A stretch of 43,165 nucleotides of DNA from a virus (Duplodnaviria; Heunggongvirae; Uroviricota; Caudoviricetes): the IMG/VR virus record IMGVR_UViG_2541047954_000002, positions 1 through 43,165 of that record, one strand, 5' to 3'. Below, in pieces: positions 1,331 through 41,359 of the stretch; the first letter of the stretch is position 1; each line of letters opens with the position of its first letter. A program made the position numbers and the translations under genes. Under the pieces are notes generated by a model that was given only the letters and a program-made list of their open reading frames with translations, was not told where the DNA came from and did not search any database.

Positions 1331-1345
1331 GCTTTTTTATACTAA
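1331..1345. repeat. attL core (GCTTTTTTATACTAA) followed by the P' arm
   Basis: Core followed by AGTTGGCATTATAAAAAAGCATTGCTTATCAATTTGTTGCAACGAACAGGTCACTATCAGTCAAAATAAAATCATTATTTGATTTC, which I recognise as the lambda attP P' arm next to int. Confidence 0.9.
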
Positions 1346-1418
1346 GTTGGCATTATAAAAAAGCATTGCTTATCAATTTGTTGCAACGAACAGGTCACTA
1401 TCAGTCAAAATAAAATCA
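1346..1418. promoter_or_regulatory. attP P' arm (Int arm-type and IHF binding region)
   Basis: Sequence matches the remembered lambda P' arm lying between the core and the int stop codon. Confidence 0.6.
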
Positions 1419-2489
1419 TTATTTGATTTCAATTTTGTCCCACTCCCTGCCTCTGTCATCACGATACTGTGATGCCATGGTGTCCGACTTATGCCCGAGA
1501 AGATGTTGAGCAAACTTATCGCTTATCTGCTTCTCATAGAGTCTTGCAGACAAACTGCGCAACTCGTGAAAGGTAGGCGGATCCCCTTCGAAGGAAAGAC
1601 CTGATGCTTTTCGTGCGCGCATAAAATACCTTGATACTGTGCCGGATGAAAGCGGTTCACGACGAGTAGATGCAATTATGGTTTCTCCGCCAAGAATCTC
1701 TTTGCATTTATCAAGTGTTTCCTTCATTGATATCCCAAGAGCATCAACATGCAATGTTGTTGGGATGGCAATTTTTACGCCGGTTTTGCTTTGCTCGACA
1801 TAAAGATAGCCATCTACGATATCAGACCACTTCATTTCGCATAAATCCCCAACACGCTGCCCGGTAACAACAGCCAGTTCCATTGCAAGTCTAAGCCAAC
1901 ATGGTGATGATTCTGCTGCTTGATAAATTTTCAGGTATTCGTCAGCCGTAAGTCTTGATCTCCTTACCTCTGATTTTGCTGCGCGAGTGGCAGTGACCGG
2001 GTTTGTTGTTATATGGCCTTCAGCTATTGCCTCTCGGAATGCATCGCTCAGTGTTGATCTGATTAACTTTGCTGACGCCGCCTTGCCCTCGTCTATGTAT
2101 CCATTGAGCATTGCTGCAATTTCTTTTGTGGTGATGTCTTCAAGTGGAGCATCAGGCAGCCCCCTCCTTATTGCTTTAATTTTGCTCATGTAATTTATGA
2201 GTGTCTTCTGCTTGATTCCTCTGTTGGCGAGGATTTTTTCGTAGCGATCAAGCCATGAATGTAACGTAACAGAATTATCACTGTTGATTCTCGCTGTCAG
2301 AGGCTTGTGTTTGTGTCCTGAAAATAACTCAATGTTTGCCTGTATAGCTTCAGTGATTGCTATCCTCCTGTCTCGGCCTAATCCAAACTCTTTACCCGTC
2401 CTTGGGTCCCTGTAGCAGTAATATCCATTGTTTCTTATATAAAGATTAGGGGGTAAATCCCGGCGCTCATGACTTCGCCTTCTTCCCAT
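1419..2489 (-). CDS. int: Lambda-type integrase (tyrosine recombinase), 356 aa
   Basis: Protein MGRRRSHERRDLPPNLYIRNNGYYCYRDPRTGKEF... matches lambda Int along its length as remembered; adjacent to the P' arm. Confidence 0.97.
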   Translation of the reverse strand: MGRRRSHERRDLPPNLYIRNNGYYCYRDPRTGKEFGLGRDRRIAITEAIQANIELFSGHKHKPLTARINSDNSVTLHSWLDRYEKILANRGIKQKTLINYMSKIKAIRRGLPDAPLEDITTKEIAAMLNGYIDEGKAASAKLIRSTLSDAFREAIAEGHITTNPVTATRAAKSEVRRSRLTADEYLKIYQAAESSPCWLRLAMELAVVTGQRVGDLCEMKWSDIVDGYLYVEQSKTGVKIAIPTTLHVDALGISMKETLDKCKEILGGETIIASTRREPLSSGTVSRYFMRARKASGLSFEGDPPTFHELRSLSARLYEKQISDKFAQHLLGHKSDTMASQYRDDRGREWDKIEIK

Positions 2490-2685
2490 TTTTGATCCTC
2501 TTCAAAAGGCTACCTGTTACTGGTCGATTTAAGTCAACCTTTACCGCTGATTCGTGGAACAGATACTCTCTTCCATCCTTAACCGGAGGAGGGAATATCC
2601 TGCACTCGCGTACCCATCGACGAACTGTTTCAAGGCTTCTTGGGCGTCGCTGGCGTGCGTTCCACTCCTGAAGTGTCAAGTACAT
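2467..2685 (-). CDS. xis: Excisionase, 72 aa
   Basis: MYLTLQEWNARQRRPRSLETVRRWVRECRIFPPPVKDGREYLF... matches lambda Xis; overlaps the int start as in lambda. Confidence 0.95.
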   Translation of the reverse strand: MYLTLQEWNARQRRPRSLETVRRWVRECRIFPPPVKDGREYLFHESAVKVDLNRPVTGSLLKRIKNGKKAKS

Positions 2686-2775
2686 CGCAAAGTCTCCGCA
2701 ATTACACGCAAGAAAAAACCGCCATCAGGCGGCTTGGTGTTCTTTCAGTTCTTCAATTCGAATATTGGTTACGTC

Positions 2776-3087
2776 TTATTCGATGCGCACTCCTGGTATT
2801 TCGCCTTTTGATATTGCGAAGTCATAAATTTGCGCAGCACTATACCCATCTCGCATCCATGAATCTAATGCGCGAATAGCCTCGCTACGCTTTTTATCTT
2901 CTCTCTCATTTTTGATATCAACGAGGACATCAACGCAATTAAGGCAAATGTGGATTTTGTCCTTACATTCGATCATGGCGGCTTTACCATGATTTCCGCC
3001 ACACAGTGAGCATAAATCTTCAGGGTCTGGCTGGTATTTCTGTAACGTTAGATGGTTGAATGTTGAACAGGCCATAATCATCTCCAT
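2776..3087 (-). CDS. Hypothetical Cys-rich (zinc-ribbon-like) protein, 103 aa
   Basis: ORF with CSLCGG...HICLNC motifs; int-proximal position; no family recognised. Confidence 0.45.
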   Translation of the reverse strand: MEMIMACSTFNHLTLQKYQPDPEDLCSLCGGNHGKAAMIECKDKIHICLNCVDVLVDIKNEREDKKRSEAIRALDSWMRDGYSAAQIYDFAISKGEIPGVRIE

Positions 3088-3146
3088 AAAACAAAACTCG
3101 CCGTAGCGAGTTCAGATAAAAGAAATCCCCGCGAGTTCGAGGATTG

Positions 3147-3470
3147 TTATTCATTGCCGATATTCACCTTTATCGCGAACACCTTTACCGGTTTATCGCC
3201 GAAGTGCGGATGTGTGATTGTCTTGATTTCATATCCGTCATACGGAACATCAATTCTACGGCTGGAATCGTCGCGCTTCGGATATCCCTTTGTGATAATC
3301 AGGCGATCATACTCCCGGAACATAATTCGCTTATTCCAGTAGTCATTACACAGGCGATACTCTTCCGTTTTCTCTCTGCGAATCATGGCATCGAAGTATT
3401 CACCTTTAACGGCAAGTTGTAGGTTAGCCAAGGTTAACCTCCTGCGGCGGTTCTGCTGCAAAATACGCAA
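3147..3470 (-). CDS. Hypothetical protein, 107 aa (start uncertain)
   Basis: Intact ORF in the early leftward operon; no confident family assignment. Confidence 0.4.
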   Translation of the reverse strand: MRILQQNRRRRLTLANLQLAVKGEYFDAMIRREKTEEYRLCNDYWNKRIMFREYDRLIITKGYPKRDDSSRRIDVPYDGYEIKTITHPHFGDKPVKVFAIKVNIGNE

Positions 3471-4275
3471 TACCTTTATCCCAGATGGATTTTATGGTCG
3501 TCCATGTGACTGGTACTTTAATTTCAATCCGCCCGCTACCGTCACAGGTATCGCAATCATCATCGCCAAAGCATTCCGGGCAGCTGATAAACGTAGTTTC
3601 TGAAAATTCACCGGATAGCGCACCCTTAGCGCCGTTCTCGGCTGTTAGTCTCTTCGGCACCATGACCCAACCATCCGGAGTTACCGGAGAGTTGCCATTT
3701 ACATCGAAGTTTGGCTCTGCGTCCTGAACCAGGAGGATGTAACCATTCTTGGCTGTATCAAGTTCTAACGCCTCGGTGACGGTGCCGAAATAGCGATTAC
3801 CTAAATCAGCATCACAAGTGCTTACATCAATGGAAACTTCCATGCCCTCGATTAATTCTGGCAAGTTGTAAGTTTGGCTTACGGGTTCGGCTTCCAGTTC
3901 TGCTATGCGCTTTTTTGCTGCTTCCAGATCAACACGCAGCTTCCCTACCGTTAGCGCAATATCCTCGTTCTCCTGGTCGCGGCGTTTGATGTATTGCTGG
4001 TTTCTTTCCCGTTCATCCAGCAGCGCCAAGACGGTAGCCGGATTGGCTGCGGCGATGAATTCAGCGTTGGCCTGCTGTTCCATTTGGAAATCTTCATCGA
4101 AACCGCTTTCTGGATGCGCTCCTTCAATTCTGCAAATAGGAATATATCCAGAAACCTCGCGATGAATTAGTGCATCATCACCATCAAATCGTCCCTCTCC
4201 ATATTCGAGCGACCATACACCACACGTTGCTTTCTCTGCCTTTTCACGCAGTGCCTGATAGTCAATCTTGCTCAC
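3424..4275 (-). CDS. Ead/Ea22-like protein with C-terminal Cys-rich zinc-ribbon; proposed GTG start with strong SD
   Basis: Contains the ANAEFIAAANPATVLALLDE-type motif and coiled-coil typical of Ea22-like proteins, C-terminal CPECFGDDDCDTCDGSG; AAGGAGG lies 6 nt upstream of the GTG at 4275; the ATG at 4467 would overlap the Lar domain by ~200 bp. Confidence 0.55.
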   Translation of the reverse strand: MSKIDYQALREKAEKATCGVWSLEYGEGRFDGDDALIHREVSGYIPICRIEGAHPESGFDEDFQMEQQANAEFIAAANPATVLALLDERERNQQYIKRRDQENEDIALTVGKLRVDLEAAKKRIAELEAEPVSQTYNLPELIEGMEVSIDVSTCDADLGNRYFGTVTEALELDTAKNGYILLVQDAEPNFDVNGNSPVTPDGWVMVPKRLTAENGAKGALSGEFSETTFISCPECFGDDDCDTCDGSGRIEIKVPVTWTTIKSIWDKGIAYFAAEPPQEVNLG

Positions 4276-5014
4276 TGTTTGCCTCCTTTGCTCGCTGATT
4301 CCACTCTGCTCTAACCTCTGAATAAAAAATCGCGCAGTCATTTCCAGGCGCTGCATATTTGCTACCAGATTGAGCGCGACACGTACCGCATCGAACGAAA
4401 TAGAATCGACCGCCAGAGCCATATTCAGGGTGATCCGCTTCGCTGGCAACGTGCGCTGCGCCGCCACAGAATGGACATGGTAGTAGGTTGCTCATGAATG
4501 CACTCCCTTGAATGCACTCCCTTGAATGCACTCCCTTGCGAAGTTGGTCTGCACAATGCAGCAGGGCGTCCGTCGCATATTTAAGCCTCACTAGCTCACC
4601 ATCATCCATTCCCGCGAGATTCGCGTGTTTAACGAACGCCGAGCAAAGGTCATTAAACGCCTGCGCCCGCACTTCATCCAGGAAAGTGTCGGTGGCTGGG
4701 GTTTCAGTAACATCATCTTCCCATTCGCTAAACTCCTCACGACAAAAGTCATTAAATTCCTTCTCAGATTGCTTAAGCGAGGTATTTTCTGCAGCCATCT
4801 TCGCGCATTTAGCCTCAAGGTTATCAATCGTGATTCCAGCAGAACGACACTCCCGCAACGCCGTTTCCAGTTTTGATTCAAGCTCACCGAACTTACGCAC
4901 CAGATATTCAGCGTTTGTTTCGTTAACCTTTAAATCTCGTGGGATGCATTTACCTTTCAGAAAACCATCCATCTCAATTAGTGACATTTGTTTCATTTCT
5001 TCCCACTCCGCCAC
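4262..5014 (-). CDS. 250-aa ORF: N-terminal unknown domain fused in-frame through a 14-bp x3 repeat to a C-terminal Lar-family restriction-alleviation domain (internal start at 4495 would give a stand-alone 77-aa Lar)
   Basis: C-terminus [42 protein letters not shown] has the CPFCG...GGRFYFV...C signature of Lar-family proteins; upstream part is acidic/coiled. Confidence 0.6.
4496..4537. repeat. Perfect tandem triplication of a 14-bp unit (GAATGCACTCCCTT; minus-strand AAGGGAGTGCATTC, contains an SD-like AGGGAG)
   Basis: Three identical adjacent copies directly 5' of the Lar-domain ATG at 4495 on the minus strand. Confidence 0.95.
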
Positions 5015-5153
5015 ATCGCATTCAGATATTTGTTTTGATTCACTGAAGGAAAAGAATTTCTCTTAAGCAATTCCTCTCTCGATGGCATTGGCTTTACGCG
5101 TTGGCGAATAATCATTTCTGCCGGAAGAATGCCGGGATTGTATGCAAGTCCTC

Positions 5154-5462
5154 TCATGATTTACTCTCCACGAACTGGTCAATAGCCATGCTAAGTGACA
5201 CACCTAAAGTCTCGATATGCTGCTGAATATCCTGTAGCGTCTGCGCCTGAGATAACAGGATTTCACGGTTGCATAACTCTTTAACCAGATGCTCAAACTT
5301 GCTGTAATAACCGATACGACTTAGTGTTTCTTTGCCTGCATTCTCGCCTTCTTTGATAATTCCTCTTTCACTAAGAATCAGGTCGTGTTTTGTTCCGGTA
5401 ATAACGTATTTGCCGAGGTCGATGTTTAGCTTCATTGTTTTCATTGTTAATTCCTCAGTCAT
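5154..5462 (-). CDS. Hypothetical protein (~100 aa; start at 5462 or 5444)
   Basis: ORF with ATGA overlap to the upstream gene stop; GAGGAA SD before the 5444 ATG; no family recognised. Confidence 0.4.
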
Positions 5463-5748
5463 TACTGATAGCGCCATAGCGTGAGCGGTAATTACGCAGG
5501 CGCGGGTCAATTTCAGGGAAGTGGGTATATGTGGCTTTGCGGAATGGTCGGATTGATGTCTGGTAAATTCGCTCGCGTTCTTCTTTCTCTGCAAGCCATA
5601 TACAGTGGCGAAATTCCTTTTCATCTTTCGTTTCCTGCGGTAGAGACATTATCTGGTCGTAGTTTTTCCTGAATTTATCCAGCACCTCCAATACGGAATT
5701 GCCGGAACAGCGGCGCGCGTCGTCCGCACCATACAGAGGCGCTGGCAT
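5455..5748 (-). CDS. Hypothetical protein, 97 aa
   Basis: Intact ORF downstream of the SSB-like gene in the same operon. Confidence 0.4.
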   Translation of the reverse strand: MPAPLYGADDARRCSGNSVLEVLDKFRKNYDQIMSLPQETKDEKEFRHCIWLAEKEERERIYQTSIRPFRKATYTHFPEIDPRLRNYRSRYGAISND

Positions 5749-5771: not shown

Positions 5772-6155
5772 TTAGAAGGGAATTGAATCGTCGTATTCAG
5801 GATGATTTTGATGATTGCTACTTTGCTGCTGTTGGCTGTTTCCTGAAGTTGCAAATCCAATCTTTGCATTCAGTAATTCAAGAGTGATTGATTGACCATT
5901 TTGCCCCTGATAAACATCAACCCTGATGTTTTCTCCGGTAATTTCTACAATGCCACCTTCAACAAGAACACTACGGTAGTAATCCGCTTGCGCTCCCGGC
6001 TTGGCAAATACAACGGCGCTGTAGTTTGTCCGTTCTTTCTTTTTTGTCTGGCGATCGTAATACTGAACGCCAGCACGGATGTTGAATCCGATATTTTCCC
6101 CGGCCTGAAACTCTCTTGCGGGCTTGTTTAGTCTTACAGTAATCGAATGTGCCAT
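5772..6155 (-). CDS. SSB-like protein with C-terminal acidic tail (ends ...EYDDSIPF)
   Basis: C-terminal DDxIPF-type tail characteristic of bacterial/phage SSBs; Gln-rich linker; immediately downstream of erf with a TAATG overlap. Confidence 0.5.
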   Translation of the reverse strand: MAHSITVRLNKPAREFQAGENIGFNIRAGVQYYDRQTKKKERTNYSAVVFAKPGAQADYYRSVLVEGGIVEITGENIRVDVYQGQNGQSITLELLNAKIGFATSGNSQQQQSSNHQNHPEYDDSIPF

Positions 6156-6760
6156 TAAGCAGCCGCTCCTTCTAATTCATCTCGTCTGATGTTGTAAACG
6201 TCCTGCGCTTTGTGCTGCTCCGGTGTGCCTTCGAGCATCTTCCACGCTTTGGCGAACGCCTGTTTAAGCTCTTCTACGGTGTTTTTCTGCATTGCTGCGT
6301 CAGTGAATGCTTTTAGAACCTGTTCAGGTGTAGGTGATGGTTTTGATTGCTTTACTGCTGCGTTCTGCTGATGTTTATGCTCGTCTGTATCTGCATCTTT
6401 CGCATCATCAATGCCGAACAAACCATTGAGGCAATACTTGCGTGCATAAGAGCTTGTAGCGCCCGTAACTTGTGCAGAATCCATTCCTTTCTTGCTTTCT
6501 TCCTCTCGTGCAAGAGCGGTTGCCGTATGACTGTTTTCGCCATCGGTAATAGTTGCCGTGGCTTTCACGTAATACCGATCACCAATCAACACAACTTCAT
6601 CGCTGATTGATAAAAACAGGCCATTCAGTAACGGCTTAACGCCTTCAAGAATGTCTTCGCAGCTTCTGTATTTATATTTGCCGAATGAGTTGTACTGATT
6701 CTTTGGCGCGTTCAGATTCTCCTGAATAGCTGCCAGTCTTGCGTAAAATTCTTTGCTCAT
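6155..6760 (-). CDS. erf: Erf-family single-strand annealing recombinase (P22 Erf-like)
   Basis: MSKEFYARLAAIQENLNAPKNQYNSFGKYKYRSCEDILEGVKPLL... closely matches remembered P22 Erf; start set at the MSKEF methionine. Confidence 0.85.
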   Translation of the reverse strand: MSKEFYARLAAIQENLNAPKNQYNSFGKYKYRSCEDILEGVKPLLNGLFLSISDEVVLIGDRYYVKATATITDGENSHTATALAREEESKKGMDSAQVTGATSSYARKYCLNGLFGIDDAKDADTDEHKHQQNAAVKQSKPSPTPEQVLKAFTDAAMQKNTVEELKQAFAKAWKMLEGTPEQHKAQDVYNIRRDELEGAAA

Positions 6761-6861
6761 ATGATTGTTCTCAGAATGGACACGGCCCAAGGAAATAACG
6801 CTGATTTAATACTTCGACTCGTGACAAATTAAGGCATACCCGCATTCCTTCGCGGTCGCCA

Positions 6862-7020
6862 TTATGGCGATACCAGAGAGCTTTCTGCGTGTACATGCGT
6901 CTCTGTAACTTGCTCTCCTTCACTGTGGTTGCAAGTGACATGAATATCTCCTTCGTTACCGATTAAATCTTTCATCTGACGAATGAATTCTTCGTCTGAC
7001 CAGTTATCTGTAAAACTCAT
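6862..7020 (-). CDS. Small ORF (52 aa) between kil and erf, possible Arf-like accessory protein
   Basis: Hand-translated ORF MSFTDNWSDEEFIRQMKDLIGNEG...; start overlaps the kil stop (ATGA); position matches arf in P22-like early regions. Confidence 0.3.
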   Translation of the reverse strand: MSFTDNWSDEEFIRQMKDLIGNEGDIHVTCNHSEGEQVTETHVHAESSLVSP

Positions 7021-7169
7021 TTCCTGCGATACCACGGAAGGTTGATAGCTGATTTCATCGCTTTATTTGCTTCAAACCACATTTTGGAATCACCAATAAA
7101 TCTGGCTATTACTGCTTTGTTTTGTGCAGCACGAAGCATCTGATGATTTATGGCTATTTCATTGCGCAT
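7017..7169 (-). CDS. kil: Kil-like host cell division inhibitory peptide, 50 aa
   Basis: Hand-translated MRNEIAINHQMLRAAQNKAVIARFIGDSKMWFEANKAMKSAINLPWYRRK; the IA-FIGD-KM motif resembles lambda Kil; located immediately downstream of cIII as in lambda. Confidence 0.55.
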   Translation of the reverse strand: MRNEIAINHQMLRAAQNKAVIARFIGDSKMWFEANKAMKSAINLPWYRRK

Positions 7170-7285
7170 AATAAGACCTCAACTCTTTTCCATCCGTCAC
7201 GTAATTTACGGGTGATTCGTTCAAGTAAAGATTCATTTAATTGGAAGGCACCCATGCGAGCGCCTCCCGCGATTGCGTAAATCAT
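7154..7285 (-). CDS. cIII: CIII-like protein (FtsH inhibitor), 43 aa
   Basis: Hand-translated MIYAIAGGARMGAFQLNESLLERITRKLRDGWKR...; the ESLLERITRKLRDGWKR core is as I remember lambda CIII. Confidence 0.75.
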   Translation of the reverse strand: MIYAIAGGARMGAFQLNESLLERITRKLRDGWKRVEVLLCAMK

Positions 7286-7309: not shown

Positions 7310-8278
7310 TTAGTAGGTTATTTTTGTTGCGAATACTTCGCCTTTTACGATGGCTGTTATGATATTTTTAGCAACATCTTCTGATGCGCCAACCTTGATA
7401 AGGTCAGCAAGTATTTTGTTATTTACTTCTTTCCGGTGAGCTTTATCCTTTGCTCTACACTCTTCTTCTTCCTTGATTCTTTTTTCTTCTGCTATTCTGG
7501 CTTGCTCTTTTGCTTCAGCCTCGCGCCGGATTCGTTCAGCCTCCTCCTGTGCTTTTCGGCGTTCTGCTTCAATTGCCGCCTGCTTTTCTCTTTCAGCTCG
7601 TTCTGCTGCCTCTTTTGCTTCGCGCTGTGCTCGTTGCTCGGCTTCAATGCGTTCACGCTCTGCACGTTCCGCTGCGGCCTTAGCTTCTGCTTCTCGCCTT
7701 GCTGCTGCTTCAATTTCGGCTTTTGCCTTTGCTTCGGCTTCTGCTCTGGCTTTCTCTTCAGCTTCTCTTTTTAAGCGTTCTTCATGCTCTCGCTTTTCCT
7801 GCTCAGCTTTGAGTCTTGCCTCTTCTCTTTGGCGGTCAAATTCGCGATCCATCAAAATCGCTATTTCATGGTCAGACTCAATTTGCTTTGCGAGAGCTTC
7901 AGCTGCTGCCTTAGCTTCTTCTTCGGCTTTAATCCGTGCCTGTTCATCCTCATAATCAGTAAGAGGCTGGCGTGCCTTGGCTTTCAGCTCATCAAGTCGA
8001 TCACGCACTGTCTTGCGGTTGGCATCAATTAGCTTTGGAATTTCCTTCAGTTCAGCAACAAGGTCTTTGCCAAGACCATCGAGATATGTTTTCGTCTGCG
8101 CAACTTTATACGCCAGAGAAGCGATCTCCTTTCTTCCCTTTGCCGTTGTTATATCAGGCACAAAGGACATAACTTCACGTTCAACCTTTTGGAGAATTTC
8201 TTCAATCTGGTCGGCAGACTGAAATACAGTCATTGCATTTGCTTTTTCAATAACAACTAAATCTGTTACTTCACTCAT
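7310..8278 (-). CDS. Highly charged coiled-coil protein with E/A/R/K-rich low-complexity core, 322 aa
   Basis: Long ORF, GGAGGA SD before the ATG at 8278; central ~150 aa is an almost pure Glu/Ala/Arg/Lys repeat. Confidence 0.6.
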   Translation of the reverse strand: MSEVTDLVVIEKANAMTVFQSADQIEEILQKVEREVMSFVPDITTAKGRKEIASLAYKVAQTKTYLDGLGKDLVAELKEIPKLIDANRKTVRDRLDELKAKARQPLTDYEDEQARIKAEEEAKAAAEALAKQIESDHEIAILMDREFDRQREEARLKAEQEKREHEERLKREAEEKARAEAEAKAKAEIEAAARREAEAKAAAERAERERIEAEQRAQREAKEAAERAEREKQAAIEAERRKAQEEAERIRREAEAKEQARIAEEKRIKEEEECRAKDKAHRKEVNNKILADLIKVGASEDVAKNIITAIVKGEVFATKITY

Positions 8279-8410: not shown

Positions 8411-8572
8411 TTATTCGCATCGCATGACAACATCAAATTTTTCGAGATTACTTTGTCGCAACAATCCCTCTTCTACGCGGTCAGCTTTTCTATAATTATC
8501 AAATTCGAAATGTTTAATTACTTCTTTCGTTTCTCGCTCTATAACTTCAACAATGTATTTCTTATTCATCAT
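8411..8572 (-). CDS. Hypothetical small protein, 53 aa
   Basis: ORF with ATGATGA start/stop overlap to the upstream gene. Confidence 0.4.
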   Translation of the reverse strand: MMNKKYIVEVIERETKEVIKHFEFDNYRKADRVEEGLLRQSNLEKFDVVMRCE

Positions 8573-8847
8573 TCTTCCCCCAGGGCCTTGCTGATGGCTG
8601 CCTTGGCTCGTTTGTATTCGGTTAACTCTCTGCACCCTTCGTCATGCTCGTAAAGGAAGACAAGCTCTTGCAGTGCTTCAAGCAAATCAGGAGCTGCTGC
8701 TATCAGTAGCGCATCCTCCCTTTCATTTCTTGTTGCTGCTTCAATGTATGTGTCACCAATCGTCACACCATGGAACGTAGTCATCATCTCGTTGACGTTT
8801 CTAACCGTGTACTTCCATTTACCAGGCGTACCCTTAAACTCTTTCAT
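8569..8847 (-). CDS. Hypothetical protein, 92 aa, with ALLIAAAPDLLEAL motif
   Basis: ORF with GAGGTGG SD; motif resembles the conserved segment of Ead/Ea22-family proteins. Confidence 0.45.
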   Translation of the reverse strand: MKEFKGTPGKWKYTVRNVNEMMTTFHGVTIGDTYIEAATRNEREDALLIAAAPDLLEALQELVFLYEHDEGCRELTEYKRAKAAISKALGEE

Positions 8848-8854
8848 ATCCACC

Positions 8855-33184: not shown

Positions 33185-34486
33185 ATGGCTACTTGGCAAC
33201 AAGGAATCAACTCAGGCGGCTTTCTTGCTGGTATCGGTGGGCAAAACTCAAATGCGCCAAAGGCAAGTGATGTAAGTGAGGCGTTGGCCTATATTCGCCA
33301 GAACAACGAAATGGAGCGCTCAGGTCGCAATAACATCGGCCTTCAGGCGTTGCAGGGTCTTGGTAGTGTCGCTCAAGCATATCAAGCCGCAAAGCAACAG
33401 GAAGCGGATGCTGCATTCCAAAAAGAATATGCGGCAGCCATCCAGTCCGGCGATCGACAGCAGGTTCGAAATCTGATGACCAAATATCCTGGTCAATTAG
33501 AGAAGATTCAGTCTGGTATGAAGTGGGCAGACGAAGACCAGCGCAATTCCATCGGTACCTTAGCGGCTGGCGCACGCCTTGCGTCATCGTCTCCAGAAGC
33601 AATGCAATCATGGCTGCAAAACAACGCCAAGGAACTGACTCGCGTCGGTGTTGACCCTAATAACGTTGCTCAGATGTATCAGCAGAATCCTTCAGGATTT
33701 GGTGAGTTTGTTGATCACCTTGGAATGGCTGCTCTTGGTCCGATTGATTACTTCAATGTTCAGGACAAGATGGCTGGTCGTGAGATTGACCGAGGCAGGC
33801 TGGCAGAGACAATCCGCAGCAATCAGGCAGGAGAAGCACTAACAGCTCGAGGTCAGGACATCCAGATACGTGGACAGAACATCAGCGCACAGAATGCTGC
33901 TCTTTCCCGAGAAATACAAAGAGCAGAATTACAAGAAAAGGCTCTGGACAGACAGATAGCCAGAGAAAGCAATCAGTTAAAGCTTGAAGAGCTAAAACAG
34001 AAACAGGCAGATGTTCGGCAAAAGGCTGACATAGCCCGCGCTGACAGGCAGGCCGCCGCTCAGGGTGCAGTTGATACGTTCAGCACCGCGCTTGATTCTC
34101 TCAACGAGATAGAGCAAAGCCCCGGCCTTTCAAAAGCAGTAGGAATTCGCTCAGCGTTTCCGACAGTTCCTGGCTCTGATGCGGCTAACTTTGAAGCAAG
34201 GCTCGACACCTTTAAAGCTCAAACATTCCTTCCTATGGTGCAGTCCCTGAAGGGTATGGGCGCTCTTTCAGATGCAGAGGGTAAAAAATTATCCGATGCG
34301 GTTGGTGCCCTAAGCCCCAAAATGAGTGAAAAGGCTTTTCGTGACTCTATCGGAAAGATTAGAAATCAGCTTGAAAGCAAGTTGAGCACTGTTAAAAAAC
34401 AGTTTGATTATCAGGAGCCGGTGCAGAATATGCCAGGGCAACAATCTACTACTGGCAGTAACTTTTCTTCGCTATGGGGTGATTAA
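33185..34486 (+). CDS. Ejection (DNA-transfer) protein, gp20-like, 433 aa
   Basis: Position and size in the P22-like order; Ala/Gln-rich. Confidence 0.7.
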   Translation: MATWQQGINSGGFLAGIGGQNSNAPKASDVSEALAYIRQNNEMERSGRNNIGLQALQGLGSVAQAYQAAKQQEADAAFQKEYAAAIQSGDRQQVRNLMTKYPGQLEKIQSGMKWADEDQRNSIGTLAAGARLASSSPEAMQSWLQNNAKELTRVGVDPNNVAQMYQQNPSGFGEFVDHLGMAALGPIDYFNVQDKMAGREIDRGRLAETIRSNQAGEALTARGQDIQIRGQNISAQNAALSREIQRAELQEKALDRQIARESNQLKLEELKQKQADVRQKADIARADRQAAAQGAVDTFSTALDSLNEIEQSPGLSKAVGIRSAFPTVPGSDAANFEARLDTFKAQTFLPMVQSLKGMGALSDAEGKKLSDAVGALSPKMSEKAFRDSIGKIRNQLESKLSTVKKQFDYQEPVQNMPGQQSTTGSNFSSLWGD

Positions 34487-36483
34487 TGGCTAAAGCATGG
34501 AAAGATGTTATCGCCTCTCCACAGTATCAGGCGTTAGCACCAGAACAAAAAGCGCAGGCTCAGGAGCAATACTTCAATGAAGTCGTTGCCCCGCAAGCCG
34601 GAGAAAATGCAGAGCAGGCTAAGCAAGCTTTCTATGCTGCCTATCCATTGCCATCTGTGCAGCCAGTGGAGACACAACAACCAGTATCACAGCAACAACC
34701 ACAGCAAAGTGGATTTATGTCGGATCTTGGTGAAGCCGTGAAAGAAACTGGTCGCGGACTGGTGCAGGCTGGCGTGAACGTGGCAAACATACCTGCATCA
34801 GTTGCCGATGCTGTAACAAGCGCGGCGGCATGGGCTGGCGGTAAACTCGGCATTGGCGATGGTACATATCAACCAGCGCCACGAGTAACAACGCAGGGGT
34901 TAGAGCAGGACTTTGGCCTTCAGCAAGGCGCGCTCACTCCACAAACGACAGAGGGAAGGGTATTTGCTGAAGCATTGCCTTACCTCACTCCTGCTGGCGT
35001 TGAGAGAGCGGCAGCACAGGCACCAACACTTGCTGGTCGAATTGCTCAGGGGGCAACTCGCCTTCTAGCAGAAAACGCAGTTGGATCACTTGCTGCAAAT
35101 AGTGCGAAAGATGATGCGGAAGCACTCGCCATCGATTTAGGCGTTGGCGTTCTGGCTGGCGGTGCTATTAACGCTGCCGGACGTGGATTAGGTGCTGCTT
35201 ATCGTGGCGTTCGTGGTGCTATTGCGCCAGAAGCGCAGCAGGCTATCAGATTTGCAGAGCGTGAAGGAGTTCCTCTGCACACCACAGACCTGTTACAGCC
35301 TACTTCCCGCGTCGGAAAAATGGCGCAAACGACAGCAGAAAATATCCCCCTGGCTGGCACAAGCGGAATGAGAGCAACGCAACAGGAAGCGAGAAGCCAG
35401 TTGGTTCAGAGATTTGCTGATAAATTCGGTGAGTATGATCCAGCGGTTGTTATTGACAGCCTTAAAGCGAAAACATCAGGAATTCGTCGTGCCGCCGGTA
35501 ATCGACTGGAGCAGGTTCAGAATGCTATGGCGGGAATAAACATTCAGCCTGCAAGAGCAATTCAGCAGATTGATACAGAAATATCTAACCTGCAGAAGCT
35601 TGGTAAGGTTGCTGATAACGAGACTATTTCAAAACTTCAGTCCTATCGTGATGAGCTTGTTCGCAATGCTGGTCCTGATGGTCCGGTAAATCTGGATTTG
35701 AAGCAATTAAGCGATCTGCGCAGCCAGTTCAGAATGGATGTGAAGGGTGAGCGACCAGTGTTACCAAACCGTTCCGATGCTGCCATTCAGCGCGTTTACA
35801 AGGCAATGACCGACGATATCAATGGTGCCATTGGTCAGAATCTTGGCAACGATACTCTCCGTAAATATCAGCAGGCCAATGCCGTCTACGCTGACGAAGC
35901 GGCGAAACTAAAGAATACCATGCTGAAGAATGTTCTCATGAAAGGCGACCTGACGCCGGAAGTTGTCAACAACATGCTATTCAGCAAGAACAAATCGGAA
36001 ATTAAGACGCTGTATAACTCAGTTGGTCGTGTTGGCAGGGCGCAAATGCGCAATGGCATCATTGGAAAGGCGATGGAGAAATCAGGTGGTTCCCCTGATC
36101 AGTTCCTTCGACAGCTTAACATCCTGCAAAACCAGACTGGCATCACATTTAAGGGGCAGGACGCTGCTTATCTGAAAGGATTGAAAAACTACCTGCAATC
36201 CACGCAGCAGGCTGCAAAAGCGGCAGTAACAACACCAACAGGGCAGCAAACCATCCCGTTCATTATCGGGTATGGGACAGCAATGAACCCGGCGACAACT
36301 GGCGCAGCGGTAAGCTACGGACTTCTTACTCGCGCCTATGAGAGCGAACCATTCAGAAATGCAATGCTCCGAATGGCAAACACACCACGCGGATCGACAG
36401 CGTTTGAGAAAGCCATGCAGCAAGCGCAAAAAGCGATTAATGCACTGACGCAGGGTGCTAAGTCTGATTCGTTGTCAGAATAG
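34486..36483 (+). CDS. Ejection (DNA-transfer) protein, gp16-like, 665 aa
   Basis: Position and size in the P22-like order. Confidence 0.7.
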   Translation: MAKAWKDVIASPQYQALAPEQKAQAQEQYFNEVVAPQAGENAEQAKQAFYAAYPLPSVQPVETQQPVSQQQPQQSGFMSDLGEAVKETGRGLVQAGVNVANIPASVADAVTSAAAWAGGKLGIGDGTYQPAPRVTTQGLEQDFGLQQGALTPQTTEGRVFAEALPYLTPAGVERAAAQAPTLAGRIAQGATRLLAENAVGSLAANSAKDDAEALAIDLGVGVLAGGAINAAGRGLGAAYRGVRGAIAPEAQQAIRFAEREGVPLHTTDLLQPTSRVGKMAQTTAENIPLAGTSGMRATQQEARSQLVQRFADKFGEYDPAVVIDSLKAKTSGIRRAAGNRLEQVQNAMAGINIQPARAIQQIDTEISNLQKLGKVADNETISKLQSYRDELVRNAGPDGPVNLDLKQLSDLRSQFRMDVKGERPVLPNRSDAAIQRVYKAMTDDINGAIGQNLGNDTLRKYQQANAVYADEAAKLKNTMLKNVLMKGDLTPEVVNNMLFSKNKSEIKTLYNSVGRVGRAQMRNGIIGKAMEKSGGSPDQFLRQLNILQNQTGITFKGQDAAYLKGLKNYLQSTQQAAKAAVTTPTGQQTIPFIIGYGTAMNPATTGAAVSYGLLTRAYESEPFRNAMLRMANTPRGSTAFEKAMQQAQKAINALTQGAKSDSLSE

Positions 36484-36573: not shown

Positions 36574-37059
36574 TTATCTGATGTTACTGCTACTGTTGCA
36601 TGTTACCGCGTTTCCAAATCCTGAATTGCAGTTTGTATATGTGTCAACGCGTGTTGGGTAAGGTTGAGTTATAACAGGCTGGCGCGCTTTTTGCTCGATC
36701 GCTTGCATTGTGTTTACAGCCTGATAATTCAATAAAGCCTGCTGGAATGCTTGGCTTTGTGCTATTTGTTGGGCTTGTTCTTGGCTTTGTAATTGAACAT
36801 AAAGATTCTGAAGCTCAAGTCTTGCCTGTGCGTCACTTATCTTGCCTTCATCGACACCTTGCCCGAGCATCTTTGCAGCAAGGACATACAGCTTAGGTGT
36901 TGGTGCTGATGCCATGCGTGAGTCGTTCTTCACACTGGCATCAAGGCAATTAGCCATATCGCTAAGCTTTTGATAGCGTTGTTCGCAACTTGCTTGATAG
37001 TCACTTACTTTTGCGCACCCAGCCAGCAGAAGCGGGATAATTAACAGTGATTTTTTCAT
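36574..37059 (-). CDS. Lipoprotein (signal peptide MKKSLLIIPLLLAGC), 161 aa, opposite strand to the late operon
   Basis: Lipobox LLAGC; strong AAGGAGAG SD; in the sieA/immI slot between gp16 and the tailspike. Confidence 0.7.
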   Translation of the reverse strand: MKKSLLIIPLLLAGCAKVSDYQASCEQRYQKLSDMANCLDASVKNDSRMASAPTPKLYVLAAKMLGQGVDEGKISDAQARLELQNLYVQLQSQEQAQQIAQSQAFQQALLNYQAVNTMQAIEQKARQPVITQPYPTRVDTYTNCNSGFGNAVTCNSSSNIR

Positions 37060-37093
37060 ATAATTAACTCTCCTTAGTTTTGCGCAGGATACC

Positions 37094-37459
37094 ATGAAAA
37101 AAGTTAACATTGGAAACGTACCAAAGATGCTCGTTCCGCTCTTTGAGAGCGGTACAATTGTGTTTTGTAGAGACTTTCCAGAATGGCAACGCCTGCATCA
37201 AAAACTTGGCGTTGACGTGCATGACTCGGACGCCAACGGAGCGTCTCATACAATGAGTAGCGAGAATGGTGTTTTGCATGTGATAGGCGTGTTCAATGGC
37301 AAACTATCTACTATTGCCCATGAGTGCGCTCACATGGCATTCGATATCTGCTCAAGGGTAGGTGTTGATGTTGAACCAGGAAGAGCCAACGAGACTTACT
37401 GCTACTTAATGAGCAGGCTTGTTGAGTTCTGCGAGCGACATATCAAAAAGCCGGAGTGA
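37094..37459 (+). CDS. Hypothetical protein with HExxH motif (IAHECAHMAFD), 121 aa
   Basis: ORF with a possible zinc-metallopeptidase HExxH motif; weak SD; overlaps the probable promoter region of the lipoprotein gene. Confidence 0.3.
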   Translation: MKKVNIGNVPKMLVPLFESGTIVFCRDFPEWQRLHQKLGVDVHDSDANGASHTMSSENGVLHVIGVFNGKLSTIAHECAHMAFDICSRVGVDVEPGRANETYCYLMSRLVEFCERHIKKPE

Positions 37460-37472
37460 CCCGGCTTGATTA

Positions 37473-37652
37473 TTACTTTTTGCTGTCTGGAGTTCGCTTA
37501 TCCAATACCCAGCCATGACCTGGCTTTGTTGTTGGTGGAAGCCTTTCGTTGTCCTTGACGGTTGCAAAATTGTCTTTCTTACCGCCGCGTGGGCCAACTT
37601 CTTGGTATATTCCGCCGTTTTTTCCTGTGTTTTCACCTGGTTTTTTCGCCAT
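37473..37652 (-). CDS. Small hydrophilic protein, ~59 aa, YjzC-like
   Basis: MAKKPGENTGKNGGIYQEVGPRGG...LPPTTKPGHGWVL pattern resembles small YjzC-family proteins; hairpin plus T-run immediately downstream on the minus strand. Confidence 0.4.
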   Translation of the reverse strand: MAKKPGENTGKNGGIYQEVGPRGGKKDNFATVKDNERLPPTTKPGHGWVLDKRTPDSKK

Positions 37653-37734
37653 GATATACCTCAACATACACCCGTTATTGGGCGATTAAATATTGATCTC
37701 ATTTTATAAGTAGTCAATATGGCCCAGGTAAATG

Positions 37735-37767
37735 CAAAAATTAACCCACCTTCAGGTGGGTTTTTTG
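37735..37767. terminator. Bidirectional terminator-like hairpin overlapping the mnt stop codon
   Basis: ACCCACC-TTCA-GGTGGGT hairpin flanked by a T-run on the plus strand and by AATTTTTG on the minus strand. Confidence 0.5.
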
Positions 37768-38003
37768 TACAAATCCTTCAGCGTATCAAACACCATCTTC
37801 TTAACAAGTTCAGACTGCTCATCAGCGATGCGTTCCGCATCGTCTCGATAGCCTGAAATTTTGGATGGCTTTGATACGGCATCAGTCACTATCTGAACTA
37901 ATTCTGAATTAAGAGAGCGGCCATTGGATTTGGCTCGCTGTTTTAGTTTTTCCTTTAATTCGTAAGGTAGCCGCAGATTAAATTGCGGGTCATCTCTTCC
38001 CAT
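37752..38003 (-). CDS. mnt: Mnt repressor (ribbon-helix-helix), 83 aa
   Basis: DDPQFNLRLPYELKEKLKQRAKSNGRSLNSELVQIVTDAVSKPSKISGYRDDAERIADEQSELVKKMVFDTLKDLYKK closely matches remembered P22 Mnt. Confidence 0.9.
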   Translation of the reverse strand: MGRDDPQFNLRLPYELKEKLKQRAKSNGRSLNSELVQIVTDAVSKPSKISGYRDDAERIADEQSELVKKMVFDTLKDLYKKPT

Positions 38004-38149: not shown

Positions 38150-40855
38150 ATGACAGACATTACAGCCAATGTTGTAGTGAGTATGCCTTCGCAACTCTTC
38201 ACTATGGCGCGTTCTTTTAAAGCCGTAGCCAATGGCAAAATTTATATCGGTAAAATTGACACTGACCCGGTAAATCCTGAAAACCAGATTCAGGTTTATG
38301 TAGAGAACGAAGACGGTTCTCACATTCCTGTTTCGCAACCAATAATCATTAACGCTGCTGGATATCCGGTATATAACGGACAGATTGCCAAATTCGTAAC
38401 CGTGCAAGGCCATTCTATGGCTGTTTACGATGCTTATGGCACTCAGCAGTTTTATTTTCCAAATGTATTAAAATACGATCCAGATCAGTTTGGCCCAGAC
38501 TTCAAAGAGCAGTTATCTCAATCAGGAGCATACATTAATGATGATTCAAAAGGTGATGCATTAATTGGGGTAAGGCAGCCATTTACCGGGGCTGTAACTA
38601 TAACTCAGCATGAAAACAATGCTCTTTTCTTAAATGTAAAACAATTTGGAGCAATTGGGGATGGGAAATATCATCCATTATCTGAGTGGTTTTCTTCAAT
38701 TTCTGAAGCAAAATCCTTATATCCTTTTGTTGACTCATTATCTCAGTCAATAGACTGGGCCGCGTGGCAAGCTGCCATTAACACAGGAAAGGTTATTTAT
38801 GGTACTGATAATGCGTATGTAATAACGGATACGTTAACACCTGTTTCTGGTGGTGGGATAATTGGTCTTGGTGTGGGCAAATGGGTCTCCGGATATACTG
38901 CAACATTTGCTCCTGATATTACCACAGGGACCACATTCCTGATGTACGGTGTAGGAAATAAAAAATATACTGTAGATTGTGTTTCTAATATGGATGTTAG
39001 TGGTGGTGTGGTTTCTAATCCATCTTCCGAAGACCCGTATACAACAACGGCACCTGCGTCATCATATGATTTATTGGATTTTACTAACGGTGATGCTAAT
39101 GGGGCTACAAGAGCCACGCTTAAACCATTCTCTGCCGCAATATTGATGCCAGAGACAGGATGTGTTCGCCTTGAGAACTTTCGTATTGTTCCATATTTCA
39201 ATGGGCTGGATGGTTATAAAGACATTGCAAATACCGGTCTTGGCGATGAGTGGGATGTAGGTATTTGGTCACGTGCGTCTTTTGGCAATGAATACCGCAA
39301 TTTGCAGGTGGTTGGATACTGGCGCAAGACGGCACTTTTAAAAACGAACATTCCTGTATCTGGCACGCTGGCCGCTCAGGGCGAGGATGAAAACTATTAT
39401 CACTGTAGATTCCAGGGATTCAAGGGTGTTTCGATCCGCGCCCATGATGTATTCCGAATTACAGCGGTAACGTCCAGCACTATCGAAATCCCATGGTCAT
39501 CAAGCCACACCTTCGAAACGTCCGGGGTTTTAAGATCGGGAGGCAGGAATTTCACTTATTCAGGATTATCCGTATCCGGTGATAAGTTAGTATTTACTGG
39601 AGTGTCTAACGCTTCTGAGGCAACAGTAGGTTCTACTATACGGCGAAATGACATAGATAACTTTGGTATGGCGGGAACGCAATTTTTCGATTGCTACATT
39701 ACCAGCCTGTATCACCACACACATCTGCTTGCCACATCGCAATACCTGTCTCAGCCATTCAGCCGGCCATCAGAGTGTATGGAGGTTTCAGGGGAACCAG
39801 TTCGCGGTGTACAGGTACATGCGGGAACCATTCAGGGATGGGATGATGTTCTTATTCATCTGCATGACTGTGGAAATATGAACTTTTACAGTACATATTT
39901 CGAAAGCCAGCAAGCATATGTAACTATAAATGGTGGTAATGCTATTGGTTATGGAGCACGTATGATAGCTTCCCGGCAATCAACAAGCTCATTACCATAT
40001 GCAGCAGGGAATACTCGAGTGCTTAGAATGGTCGGGTGCTCTGAAGGCAATGGCGTTGACTGGGGTCCTGTATTTAACAACTATACAGGAGGAAGATATA
40101 ATTCTGGAGACGGTGTATTTAACCCCCGCGATGCATTTATAGACCATAAATCTCTTCCTGAGCAGTCAGGAGGTGAGTCAAGACTCGTATCACAAAAAGG
40201 AAATGCCAGAGTAGTATGTGGTGTTGGTAAAACTGTACTGCTTGGACCAACGTCAGGAGATTGTAATTTACAGAGTAATACTGGAAGTTTAAATATTAGA
40301 AGTGGGATAAGAGTAAGAATCGGTCACGCTGATGGAACAGACTGGTGGTTGGCAGATGCTAATAAAATAGCTCCTGTTGATGATAATGTTAAAGCTATTG
40401 GACAGCCATCAAACAGATGCTCTGTTATCTATGCAGGAACCGGGTCAATCAATACATCAGATGAAACTCTTAAAACAAGATATGATATTCTTAATGCAGA
40501 GCGTGATGCCGCTATTGAAATAAAGTCAGTCATCTATAAATTTAAATTTAATGACTCAATTAATCACAAAGGAATTGAGTCGTCCAGGTATCATTTTGGC
40601 GTTGGCGCTCAAACCGTAGGGGATATTCTTAGAAAGCATGGTTTAAATCCTGAGCAATATGCTTTTTGGTGTTACGATGAATGGCCTGACGTATGGGATG
40701 AAGAGGTGATAACTGAAGAGAGCACAGATCCTGATACAGGTGAGAAAATTTATTCTCAATATAAAACAGGAGATATGATTCTTGTAAAAAAAGCAGGAGG
40801 ACGCTACGGAATTCGTTATGACGAATTGGCTATGTTTATATTAATGGCAATGTAG
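38150..40855 (+). CDS. Tailspike protein: P22 gp9-like N-terminal head-binding domain, divergent receptor-binding body, C-terminal intramolecular-chaperone-like domain, 901 aa
   Basis: N-terminal ~115 aa [43 protein letters not shown]...[10 protein letters not shown] parallels P22 tailspike; C-terminal region has an SDETLK motif resembling autoproteolytic chaperone domains. Confidence 0.9.
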
Positions 40856-40873
40856 TTGCAATAAATGCAGTAT

Positions 40874-40902
40874 ATCCCGCATAAAAATGCGGGATTGTTT
40901 TT
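40874..40902 (+). terminator. Rho-independent terminator after the tailspike gene
   Basis: ATCCCGCATAAAAATGCGGGAT hairpin followed by TGTTTTT. Confidence 0.65.
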
Positions 40903-41189
40903 ATCTGGTGTATTTATGAATTTTAAGTAAATTTTAGTATTGATTACTGCATCGCAGTTAAAGCCTCATTACCTATGAGGCAAAACTGAGACACACAAGG
41001 CTTTGCACTGGATTGCAAGGCTTTGTGCTATCTGAGATATAGCAATGTTGGTTGCTCCACCTTTTCATCAAGCCAGTCCGCCCACCACTGCATCATTTCT
41101 CTGCGCTTATCGAGATACTGAGCATGGTTGTAAATTCAACTACCCCAGTGAGTTGACAAAAAATTAGCGCAAGAAGAAAAAAAATCACC

Positions 41190-41344
41190 TTGCGCTAATG
41201 CTCTGTTACAGGTCACTAATACCATCTAAGTAGTTGATTCATAGTGACTGCACATGCTGTGTTTTGCAGTATTATGTAGTCTATTATTTAGACCAAAACC
41301 ATCATAACACATTGATATTGATGATTTTTCTTGTTTCTCATTCA
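41190..41344. promoter_or_regulatory. attP P arm (Int/IHF/Xis binding region) at the right prophage end
   Basis: CTGTTACAGGTCACTAATACCATCTAAGTAGTTGATTCATAGTGACTGCA... resembles the remembered lambda P arm, with some divergence. Confidence 0.55.
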
Positions 41345-41359
41345 GCTTTTTTATACTAA
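41345..41359. repeat. attR core (GCTTTTTTATACTAA) followed by bacterial B' sequence
   Basis: Identical 15-bp core to attL; followed by CTTGAGCGAAACGGGAAGG, as remembered for attB. Confidence 0.9.

Follow-up and report, generated by a model that had tools for sequence, protein, structure and literature searches.

A P22-like prophage with a lambda-type integration module at the lambda attachment site, and two homing-endonuclease cassettes within it

Overview of the locus

The window analyzed here is the whole 43,165-nucleotide stretch of the IMG/VR record IMGVR_UViG_2541047954_000002 (positions 1 to 43,165), in which a prophage of 40,014 bp occupies positions 1331-41359 between the host genes ybhC and ybhB. 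Its features follow the order of a lambda prophage, that is, attL, int, xis, early-left region, N, cI, cro, cII, replication genes, nin genes, Q, lysis genes, virion genes, tailspike and attR. At 40.0 kb its size falls within the 38.3-41.7 kb range of the phages Huey, HK620, Sf6, CUS-3 and P22. A first, sequence-only reading of this DNA had proposed a complete lambda/P22 mosaic prophage at the lambda attB site. Based on comparisons with individual phages, with 50,697 phage records and with 5426 complete Escherichia coli genomes, we consider it very probable that the element is a single complete temperate P22-like phage genome (Lederbergvirus, CUS-3/Sf6/HK620 subgroup) at lambda attB, which would be maintained, induced, excised, replicated and packaged as proposed below.

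Attachment sites and integration module

The 15-bp lambda core (GCTTTTTTATACTAA) has two exact copies in the window, at 1331-1345 and 41345-41359, where chance would provide 0.01. The first is the core of attL (B-O-P'; ctGCTTTTTTATACTAAgttg) and the second the core of attR (P-O-B'; caGCTTTTTTATACTAActtg), and with the B and B' half-sites outside the duplicated core the two sites read CTGCTTTTTTATACTAAGTTG (attL) and CAGCTTTTTTATACTAACTTG (attR). The left flank, on the gal side of lambda attB, is host ybhC (1-1284, minus strand), which is 100% identical to the RefSeq ybhC of several genomes, and the right flank is host ybhB (41450-41926, minus strand); int adjoins attL, on the gal side, as in the lambda prophage. 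An empty attB of 416 nt was reconstructed from 215 nt on the left, with a single core at their end, and 201 nt on the right. It matches, with 100% identity, the insertion-free ybhC-ybhB site of Nissle 1917, ATCC 11775 and other strains, and 3487 of the 5426 complete genomes have this site uninterrupted. Given the exact cores and the 100% match of the empty site, the ends assigned to the prophage in the sequence-only reading are exact. These junctions are those left when lambda Int recombines an attP of the lambda type with the canonical attB, which is located between gal and bio in the spacer separating ybhC from ybhB. The flanks match those of B2 strains, for example CFT073 and Nissle 1917.

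The lambda-type tyrosine integrase gene int (1419-2489, minus strand; 356 aa) is full length and its product is 99% identical to lambda Int. The five substitutions (S89N, H164P, A166T, A245T, and I248V) include none at the residues that we take to be catalytic in lambda Int (R212, K235, H308, R311, H333, and Y342), and three of the five are also present in the viable temperate phage Huey. Next to it, xis (2467-2685, minus strand; 72 aa) is likewise full length, with a product 97% identical to lambda Xis and differing from it by G59S and R65K, both in the C-terminal tail. The earlier claims that the cores, int and xis are intact and that integration is of the lambda type are borne out by these comparisons.

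The two arms of the attachment site differ in their similarity to lambda, as had also been noticed from the sequence. The P' arm (H', P'1-P'3; 1346-1455) is identical to that of lambda at 110/110 positions in an alignment with the lambda and Huey attP sites, whereas the P arm of attR (41154-41344), in which homology to lambda starts at 41154, is identical at 136/160. Within the P arm the distal P1-H1-P2 part is conserved (69/70), while the X1/X2/F/H2 part is diverged, with 33/40 identities in the middle, across the Xis sites, and 34/50 in the proximal Fis/H2 part, where an IHF-like core (ATTGATAT) is kept. In terms of individual sites, P1, H1, P2, H', and P'1-3 are identical to lambda and X1, X2, F, and H2 carry substitutions. 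Huey and the 720R6 prophage are likewise variable in the proximal part of the P arm.

A relic of an integrase gene of the CUS-3/Sf6 (argW) type lies at 41016-41135, after the tailspike terminator and before the lambda P arm. It corresponds to the 3' end of the gene, was found by tblastn and is 85% identical at the nucleotide level to positions 1266-1385 of CUS-3 int. The same relic is annotated as a partial pseudogene in strain U013 by the NCBI Prokaryotic Genome Annotation Pipeline (PGAP). We interpret it as the footprint of the swap that placed a lambda int-xis-attP unit into a P22-like backbone.

Immunity and antitermination

The N antiterminator (10063-10389, minus strand; 108 aa) is of the lambda type, with 90% amino acid identity to lambda N and identity at 108/108 residues to N of phage mEp043, and its arginine-rich motif (MDAQTRRRERRAEKQAQW) is conserved relative to lambda N. 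The boxB of nutL (GCCCTGAAGAAGGGC; 10548-10562, minus strand) is exact and is preceded by a boxA-like sequence (TGCTCTTA), and nutR (12102-12133, plus strand) comprises an exact boxB and the boxA CGCTCTTA. The presence of N together with boxA-boxB sites downstream of both PL and PR points to antitermination of the lambda N/nut type, as the sequence-only reading had it.

The cI repressor gene (11068-11754, minus strand; 228 aa) encodes a protein with a Pfam Peptidase_S24 domain that is identical to mEp043 cI at 224/228 residues. The products of cro (11863-12093, plus strand) and cII (12210-12491, plus strand) are both 100% identical to those of mEp043. Downstream of cI, at the position of lambda rex, is a gene for a membrane-anchored protein (10757-11053/11071, minus strand; phrog_10450) that matches its mEp043 counterpart at 101/104 residues; it appears to be co-transcribed with cI, and a terminator hairpin can be read there. 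Overall cI, cro, cII, and this cI-downstream gene agree in length with their counterparts in mEp043, a viable phage, at 97-100% identity, and repeated TTACCTG..CAGGTAA-like operators can be read at both OL and OR. Based on these similarities we assign the immunity to the mEp043 type. A search with Rfam returned only the two tRNAs described below at gathering scores, with no match to sar, oop or any other RNA family.

Replication, nin, Q and lysis genes

The replication module (12526-14990, plus strand) starts with a gene for a 53-aa protein, followed by an O-like initiator (12674-13564, plus strand; 296 aa) and a DnaB-like helicase (13554-14990, plus strand; 478 aa), which have 98-99% amino acid identity to the Sf6 gp43/gp44 pair. 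The assignment of the module is based on phrog_345 and on Pfam DnaB and DnaB_C matches of the helicase. The Sf6 record describes gp43/gp44 as similar to HK022 genes 54/55 (NC_005344). Replication had been called P22-type, which holds for the architecture: the phage has its own DnaB-family helicase and not a loader of the lambda P type. In sequence, however, the module is of the Sf6 type; it gave no match to P22 gp18, and the identity of its helicase to P22 gp12 is only 31%.

The nin region begins with ninB (15067-15507, plus strand; Pfam NinB), which is 97.5% identical to lambda at the nucleotide level, and after the dam gene described below continues with ninE, ninF, roi (KilAC/ANT), a DUF1364 gene, rusA, ninH, and Q (together 16555-18968, plus strand). 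The earlier description of the nin genes as lambda-type applies to ninB, ninE, and ninF only (96-97.5% nucleotide identity), while roi, DUF1364, rusA, and ninH are CUS-3-like and Q (18450-18968, plus strand) is of the phage-21/Sf6 type (98% amino acid identity). Genes for tRNA-Asn(GTT) and tRNA-Thr(TGT) (19032-19187, plus strand), identified by ARAGORN and Rfam, separate Q from S, a position that they also have in Sf6 and phage 21. The lysis cassette (19429-20646, plus strand) consists of the S holin, the R endolysin and Rz, with Rz1, for which a lipobox was read, embedded in Rz (20408-20593, plus strand). It is lambda-type in S and R (99 and 97% amino acid identity to lambda, respectively), as stated earlier, but not in Rz/Rz1, which are of the P22/Sf6 type (90-94% amino acid identity, vs. 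58% to lambda). The cassette is followed by rha, whose product is 96% identical to P22 Rha, and small genes including a DUF2560 gene (together 20796-22115, plus strand).

Virion module and tailspike

The first part of the virion module (22118-29098, plus strand) encodes the small terminase (146 aa), large terminase (471 aa), portal (732 aa), scaffold (297 aa) and coat (417 aa) proteins, a 62-aa protein, and gp4 (153 aa). The small and large terminases and gp4 are 100% identical in amino acid sequence to those of CUS-3, the portal, coat and scaffold are 97, 99, and 89% identical to their CUS-3 counterparts, respectively (the scaffold is 99% identical to that of U013), and all six of the terminase, portal, scaffold, coat, and gp4 genes are as long as the CUS-3 genes. 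Downstream of gene 10 (gp10, 472 aa) are the genes for the gp26 tail needle (282 aa), gp14, and the ejection proteins gp7, gp20 (433 aa), and gp16 (665 aa) (together 31199-36483, plus strand), all full length and with 92-99% amino acid identity to Sf6 or 720R6. The gene order is that of P22 (genes 3, 2, 1, 8, 5, 4, 10, 26, 14, 7, 20, 16, and 9), with every gene present at full length, and the lengths match those of homologs in CUS-3, Sf6, 720R6 or U013. The virion had been read as that of a P22-type podovirus, and while the gene order agrees with this, the subtype to which we assign the module is that of CUS-3/Sf6, the coat protein being only 30% identical to that of P22. From the terminase subunits identical to those of CUS-3 we infer podovirus morphology and headful packaging.

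The tailspike (38150-40855, plus strand; 901 aa) has a P22-type head-binding domain, a central domain and a C-terminal Pfam Peptidase_S74 chaperone domain. The assignment of its N-terminus is supported by a Pfam Head_binding match (E=1e-66) and by sequence matches to the Sf6 and P22 tailspike N-termini in the PDB. Its receptor-binding part is 99% identical to those of the U013 and YDC107_2 prophages and 73% identical to that of phage YZ1. The P22 virion gene order, the gp9-type head-binding domain and the lambdoid early region (cI, cro, cII, N-type and Q-type genes) are the features expected of a Lederbergvirus, and we place the phage in that genus on this basis.

Between gene 16 and the tailspike is a reduced immI region (36574-38003). 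It consists of a gene for a 161-aa lipoprotein at the sieA position (36574-37059, minus strand; phrog_6067), a 121-aa open reading frame (ORF) with an HExxH motif (37094-37459, plus strand; phrog_1365, with no Pfam family), an orf59a-like gene (37473-37667, minus strand) and mnt (37752-38003, minus strand); arc and ant are absent from the region, as in 720R6. The motif of the 121-aa ORF is HECAH. The ORF differs at 6 nt from the corresponding sequence of P22 (NC_002371, 13861-14226), and as all six are third codon positions it is probably a real gene. The P22 RefSeq record does not annotate it; its place there would be between sieA and orf59a.

Two homing-endonuclease cassettes

The window contains two homing-endonuclease genes (HEGs), here called HEG-A and HEG-B. 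HEG-B (29249-29833, plus strand; 194 aa) is part of a 680-bp insert between gene 4 and gene 10, has Pfam NUMOD4 and HNH_3 domains and is 98.7% identical to its counterpart in Salmonella phage UPF_BP1. Ahead of it is an orphan 5' fragment of the resident gene 10 (29108-29212, plus strand) with 31 native codons and a stop after 34, which is identical to the Sf6 gene-10 start at 91/93 nt and which PGAP labels a pseudogene in other genomes. Gene 10 itself (head closure; 29781-31199, plus strand) starts inside the end of the HEG-B ORF. Its first 41 codons are recoded relative to Sf6, being identical at 76/123 nt (62%) but at 33/41 amino acids (80%), with 23 synonymous and 8 non-synonymous codon changes, and the next 300 nt are 93% identical. 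A hairpin at the left junction of the insert (29181-29200) has a terminator-like score but is weak, with 3 G-C pairs.

The cassette block from 29200 to approximately 29903 is 97-100% identical in seven genomes that represent three gene-4 lineages: P22-type (UPF_BP1), Sf6-type (two E. coli prophages) and CUS-3-type (the window and two others). By comparison, the left flank of HEG-B is only 37-64% identical among them and the right flank drops to about 90% within 100-200 nt. Of the 5426 complete E. coli genomes, 903 have a match to gp10 and 18 carry HEG-B; among the phage records HEG-B occurs in two, both of the one phage UPF_BP1. In strain ES5 the endonuclease ORF is split. The order of gene 4, endonuclease gene and gene 10 is shared by UPF_BP1, deposited as a complete phage genome, and is therefore probably compatible with viability.

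HEG-A (15504-16031, plus strand; 175 aa; Pfam HNH_3) lies between ninB and dam. It opens with the first 9 codons of the resident dam (MTIKSNTPA), fused in frame, and its first 26 nt are identical to the start of Sf6 dam (31912-31937). Its 3' end provides a recoded start for dam, the Sf6 counterpart of which is MTIKSNTPAHDKD, so that the 5' end (about 13 codons; 16028-16066) of the phage N6-adenine methyltransferase gene dam (16028-16558, plus strand; Pfam Dam, E=8e-66) is replaced. HEG-A is present in 34 of the 5426 complete genomes (34/1410 in the presence/absence comparison), in which the flanks are too conserved for a contrast between cassette and flank. By megablast the insert was found in 0 of the 50,697 phage records, the matches being to the ninB and dam flanks only. 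The dam homolog of Sf6 (gene 51, 31912-32436) has an in-frame stop (…CAHWLT*ADD…), which accounts for its absence from the RefSeq gene table, whereas dam in the window is intact.

HNH_3 is common to the products of both genes, with NUMOD4 in HEG-B, yet there is no significant similarity between HEG-A and HEG-B (E about 1), implying that they were acquired independently. Both target genes stay intact, each cassette supplying a recoded 5' end in place of the resident one. The sharp boundaries of the cassettes, their presence/absence polymorphism and the converted flank fit intronless homing. We tentatively suggest, as a possibility that falls a little short of an even chance, that the HNH cassettes are active homing elements spreading among temperate P22-like and lambdoid phages of E. 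coli and Salmonella with a "bring your own immune target" design. Each is placed within the opening codons of a conserved gene (gene 10 or dam), where it takes over or abandons the resident start codon, and the synonymously recoded 5' end that it carries would preserve the function of that gene but eliminate the site of cleavage. In this way a stretch of an essential virion gene would be passed on by HEG-B among three head-gene lineages (P22, Sf6, and CUS-3 types) that cannot otherwise be aligned. Genes of this kind are not unusual in lambdoid prophages, since related prophages have other ones, of the HNH-AP2 type, close to ninB and Q.

Homing-type gene conversion is best known from virulent T-even phages. 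The cassettes offer evidence at the sequence level that points to such conversion moving DNA between temperate P22-like phages of different host genera, a modest and testable side finding for which they would be an easy experimental system.

Early-left accessory genes and flanking sequences

Gene coordinates in the early-left region were set from those of homologs and from the gene calls of an identical contig, and all genes of the region are on the minus strand. Beyond xis is an accessory block (2776-5444), assigned from the gene calls of the identical contig, Pfam and PHROGs, with an Sf6 gene-19-like gene (2776-3075), a gene for a 94-aa protein (3147-3431), an Ead/Ea22-like gene (3424-4275), a gene for a 244-aa protein flagged as Lar_restr_allev (4262-4996), a DUF2737 gene (4993-5157) and a DUF5405 gene (5154-5444). 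The recombination genes follow: abc2, for a 97-aa anti-RecBCD protein (5455-5748; Pfam Anti-RecBCD_p2, E=1.4e-61), a gene for a 127-aa SSB-like protein (5772-6155; phrog_44) that is a homolog of CUS-3 ECRS218_0055 with 98% identity, and the recombinase gene erf (6155-6760; 201 aa). Erf, read from the sequence as P22-type, has a Pfam ERF match (E=3.6e-44) and amino acid identities of 98% to CUS-3 Erf and 74% to P22 Erf. One or more small genes (6771-7020), kil (7017-7169), cIII (7154-7285), and a gene for a 322-aa homolog of the Sf6 gene 33 product (7310-8278) complete this part.

The accessory genes of the PL operon at 8411-10051, annotated with PHROGs, encode proteins of 53, 92, and 156 aa and a protein with nucleotide-modification-associated domain 5 (Nmad5; 9428-10051; Pfam Nmad5, E=3.9e-70). 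The Nmad5 gene is located just downstream of N and is also present in the U013 prophage. A PADLOC search of nine accessory proteins for defense systems gave no matches; the only PADLOC matches were those of the TnpB beside the prophage to Cas12f-like models, which is to be expected of such a protein. Neither the membrane-anchored protein of about 100 aa in the rex position nor the lipoprotein at the sieA position matched a PADLOC model. The genes for these two proteins are probably expressed from the prophage, and we regard them as candidates for superinfection exclusion.

The TnpB is encoded by a complete solo tnpB/insQ gene (42035-43165; 376 aa, with OrfB_IS605 and Cas12f1-like TNB domains) directly beside ybhB, near which no tnpA is visible in the window. 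In 720R6, bioA is found at this place, and the tnpB-beside-ybhB arrangement occurs in approximately 342 complete E. coli genomes, CFT073 among them. The ybhC and ybhB flanks of CFT073 (NZ_CP051263.1, 830457-838893) are only about 5 kb apart, with an integrase annotated at the left end, which points to the remnant of a prophage at lambda attB there.

A probably inducible prophage

The early, replication, lysis and virion genes are full length relative to their homologs in CUS-3, Sf6, mEp043, 720R6, and U013. Comparison of the essential genes with these homologs found no insertion sequence (IS) element, frameshift or truncation, and there are no large deletions. Hidden frameshifts in essential genes, named in the sequence-only reading as a finding that would speak against it, were thus looked for and none were found. 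Its statement that all ORFs are uninterrupted is right in that no essential gene is broken, but it passed over the two HNH cassettes and the orphan 34-codon copy of the gene-10 start, and it likewise overlooked the reduction of immI to mnt and the integrase relic.

That the prophage is inducible is our inference from its sequence, and we propose the following course. The mEp043-type, LexA-like cI would keep the prophage until its cleavage, stimulated by RecA, allows PL and PR to fire. Lambda-type N acting at nutL and nutR would then provide read-through to int/xis and to Q. The genome would be excised at the two cores by Int, Xis, IHF, and Fis and replicated by the Sf6-type initiator and the DnaB-like helicase. 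Finally, the phage-21-type Q would turn on the late operon with tRNA-Asn/Thr, S-R-Rz/Rz1, the headful terminase, the P22-type head, needle and ejection proteins and the 901-aa tailspike.

Several observations weigh against this proposal. The X1 site reads CATGCTG, vs. TATGTTG in lambda, a change shared with the U013 prophage only and not with Huey or 720R6, and because it is located in the Xis-binding part of the P arm the efficiency of excision could be reduced. The Shine-Dalgarno sequence on which gene 10 now relies is weak and falls within the HEG-B ORF, cI differs from mEp043 cI at 4 residues, and the promoters, operators and pac site were judged by similarity to other phages only. The immI region is without arc and ant, although this is harmless in Sf6, whose annotation has no immI region.

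Some of these observations also bear on the main alternative, that the prophage looks intact but is cryptic, its gene content being complete yet yielding no excision or infectious particles. The possible causes would be the diverged Xis/Fis/H2 part of the P arm (34/50 identities to lambda in the proximal part and 33/40 across X1/X2, with the X1 changes confined to the window and U013), the replacement of the gene-10 start by the HEG-B cassette with its weak ribosome-binding site, and point changes in regulatory sites, to which the four cI residues may be added. In addition, isolated phages hold no more than 51% of the left part and 78% of the right part of the prophage in one place. On the other hand, the essential genes are free of truncations and frameshifts, with no IS elements or large deletions. 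The proximal P arm varies as well in Huey, which forms turbid plaques, and in 720R6, and in the window the IHF-like core and all arm-type Int sites are kept. The arrangement around the gene-10 start has its equal in UPF_BP1, deposited as a complete phage genome. We consider a cryptic prophage unlikely.

It is highly improbable that the window represents an assembly chimera of two prophages. The exact mosaic is present in none of the complete E. coli genomes, as a chimera would predict, but an NCBI scaffold (GCA_000461555.1, KE702497.1) matches window positions 1068-21754, the 20.7 kb compared, with 100% identity, overlapping CUS-3, Sf6, 720R6, and U013 blocks tile the element across every module joint, and the att junctions are precise at both ends. 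The attB site and the 90-99% identity of int, xis, N, ninB, and S-R to lambda might suggest a true lambda-like siphovirus prophage (Lambdavirus) instead, but this is refuted by the absence of any lambda head or tail gene, the P22 order of the late region, the P22 head-binding tailspike and the restriction of lambda matches to about 4.5 of 40 kb.

Our favored explanation remains a complete and probably inducible P22-like prophage. It is one more mosaic in a very well-studied family, of which lambda-int members are already on record (Huey, 720R6, and U013). Its practical value is that of a cleanly bounded, apparently functional prophage with a tailspike and several unassigned genes expressed, in all likelihood, from the prophage (the cI-downstream gene, the lipoprotein gene and Nmad5).

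Comparison with known phages and homing systems

P22-like phages are common temperate podoviruses with strongly mosaic genomes of about 40 kb and control regions resembling those of lambda, and they include Huey, an isolated P22-like phage with a lambda int module that forms turbid plaques (PMC11990801). The combination of modules in the window is new among the phage records and the complete E. coli genomes. The former contain at most 51% of the left part of the prophage and 78% of the right part in one place and the latter at most 60% of the left part, with the exact mosaic in none. The possibility that the prophage is a copy of a named phage is ruled out, as no phage record or complete E. 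coli genome holds the whole combination.

The best overall match is CUS-3 (CP000711, Lederbergvirus), to which the segment from the small terminase to gp4 is 96% identical at the nucleotide level, and the erf region, roi-rusA-ninH-Q and the lysis genes 96-98%, in the same gene order. CUS-3 differs in having its own integrase type (of which the 120-nt relic is found in the window), another immunity region, replication genes with 23-32% amino acid identity, a K1 endosialidase tailspike and a full ant gene, and in having no homing-endonuclease cassettes. Sf6 (NC_005344) is similar in its replication genes (98-99% amino acid identity), in Q, the PR' region, tRNA-Asn/Thr and the lysis genes (97% nucleotide identity), in gp10, gp26, and gp16 (97-99% amino acid identity) and in the absence of ant. 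It differs in its IntS-type integrase, 434-type immunity and oac conversion gene, and in its coat, portal, gp4 and tailspike.

The lambda int-xis-attP module is shared with the P22-like elements 720R6 (vB_EcoP-720R6, ON470605), UPEC_U013 (NZ_CP058596) and Huey (PQ850609), and the 720R6 and U013 prophages occupy the same ybhC/ybhB site as that of the window. The tailspike and attR region of U013 is 99.5% identical to the window at the nucleotide level, and 720R6 has the mnt-only immI region and gp20/gp16 in common with it. Each of the three differs in its immunity region, replication module, recombinase (RecT in U013) and accessory genes, and none has HEG-A or HEG-B. With lambda (NC_001416) the prophage shares the attP core, the P' arm, the distal P arm, int, xis, N and the nut sites, ninB/E/F, S and R. 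The remaining approximately 35 of 40 kb are unrelated: the window has no lambda head or tail genes, O/P, exo/bet/gam or rex, and its cI and Q are others than those of lambda.

For the two cassettes the closest parallel is the intronless homing described for SegF, SegG, and MobE, free-standing homing endonucleases of T-even phages (PMC2988022). Like these, the window cassettes are stand-alone HNH genes beside a conserved phage gene, and, as in intronless homing of the T-even phages, HEG-B is sharply bounded, near-identical and accompanied by a short converted flank in genomes that are otherwise divergent. Unlike SegF, SegG, and MobE, each window cassette is inside the first codons of its target gene, brings a recoded 5' end and, in the case of HEG-B, leaves an orphan fragment. 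A further difference from the T-even case is that the hosts of the cassettes are temperate lambdoid and P22-like phages, in which cleavage is suggested only by the recoded 5' ends.

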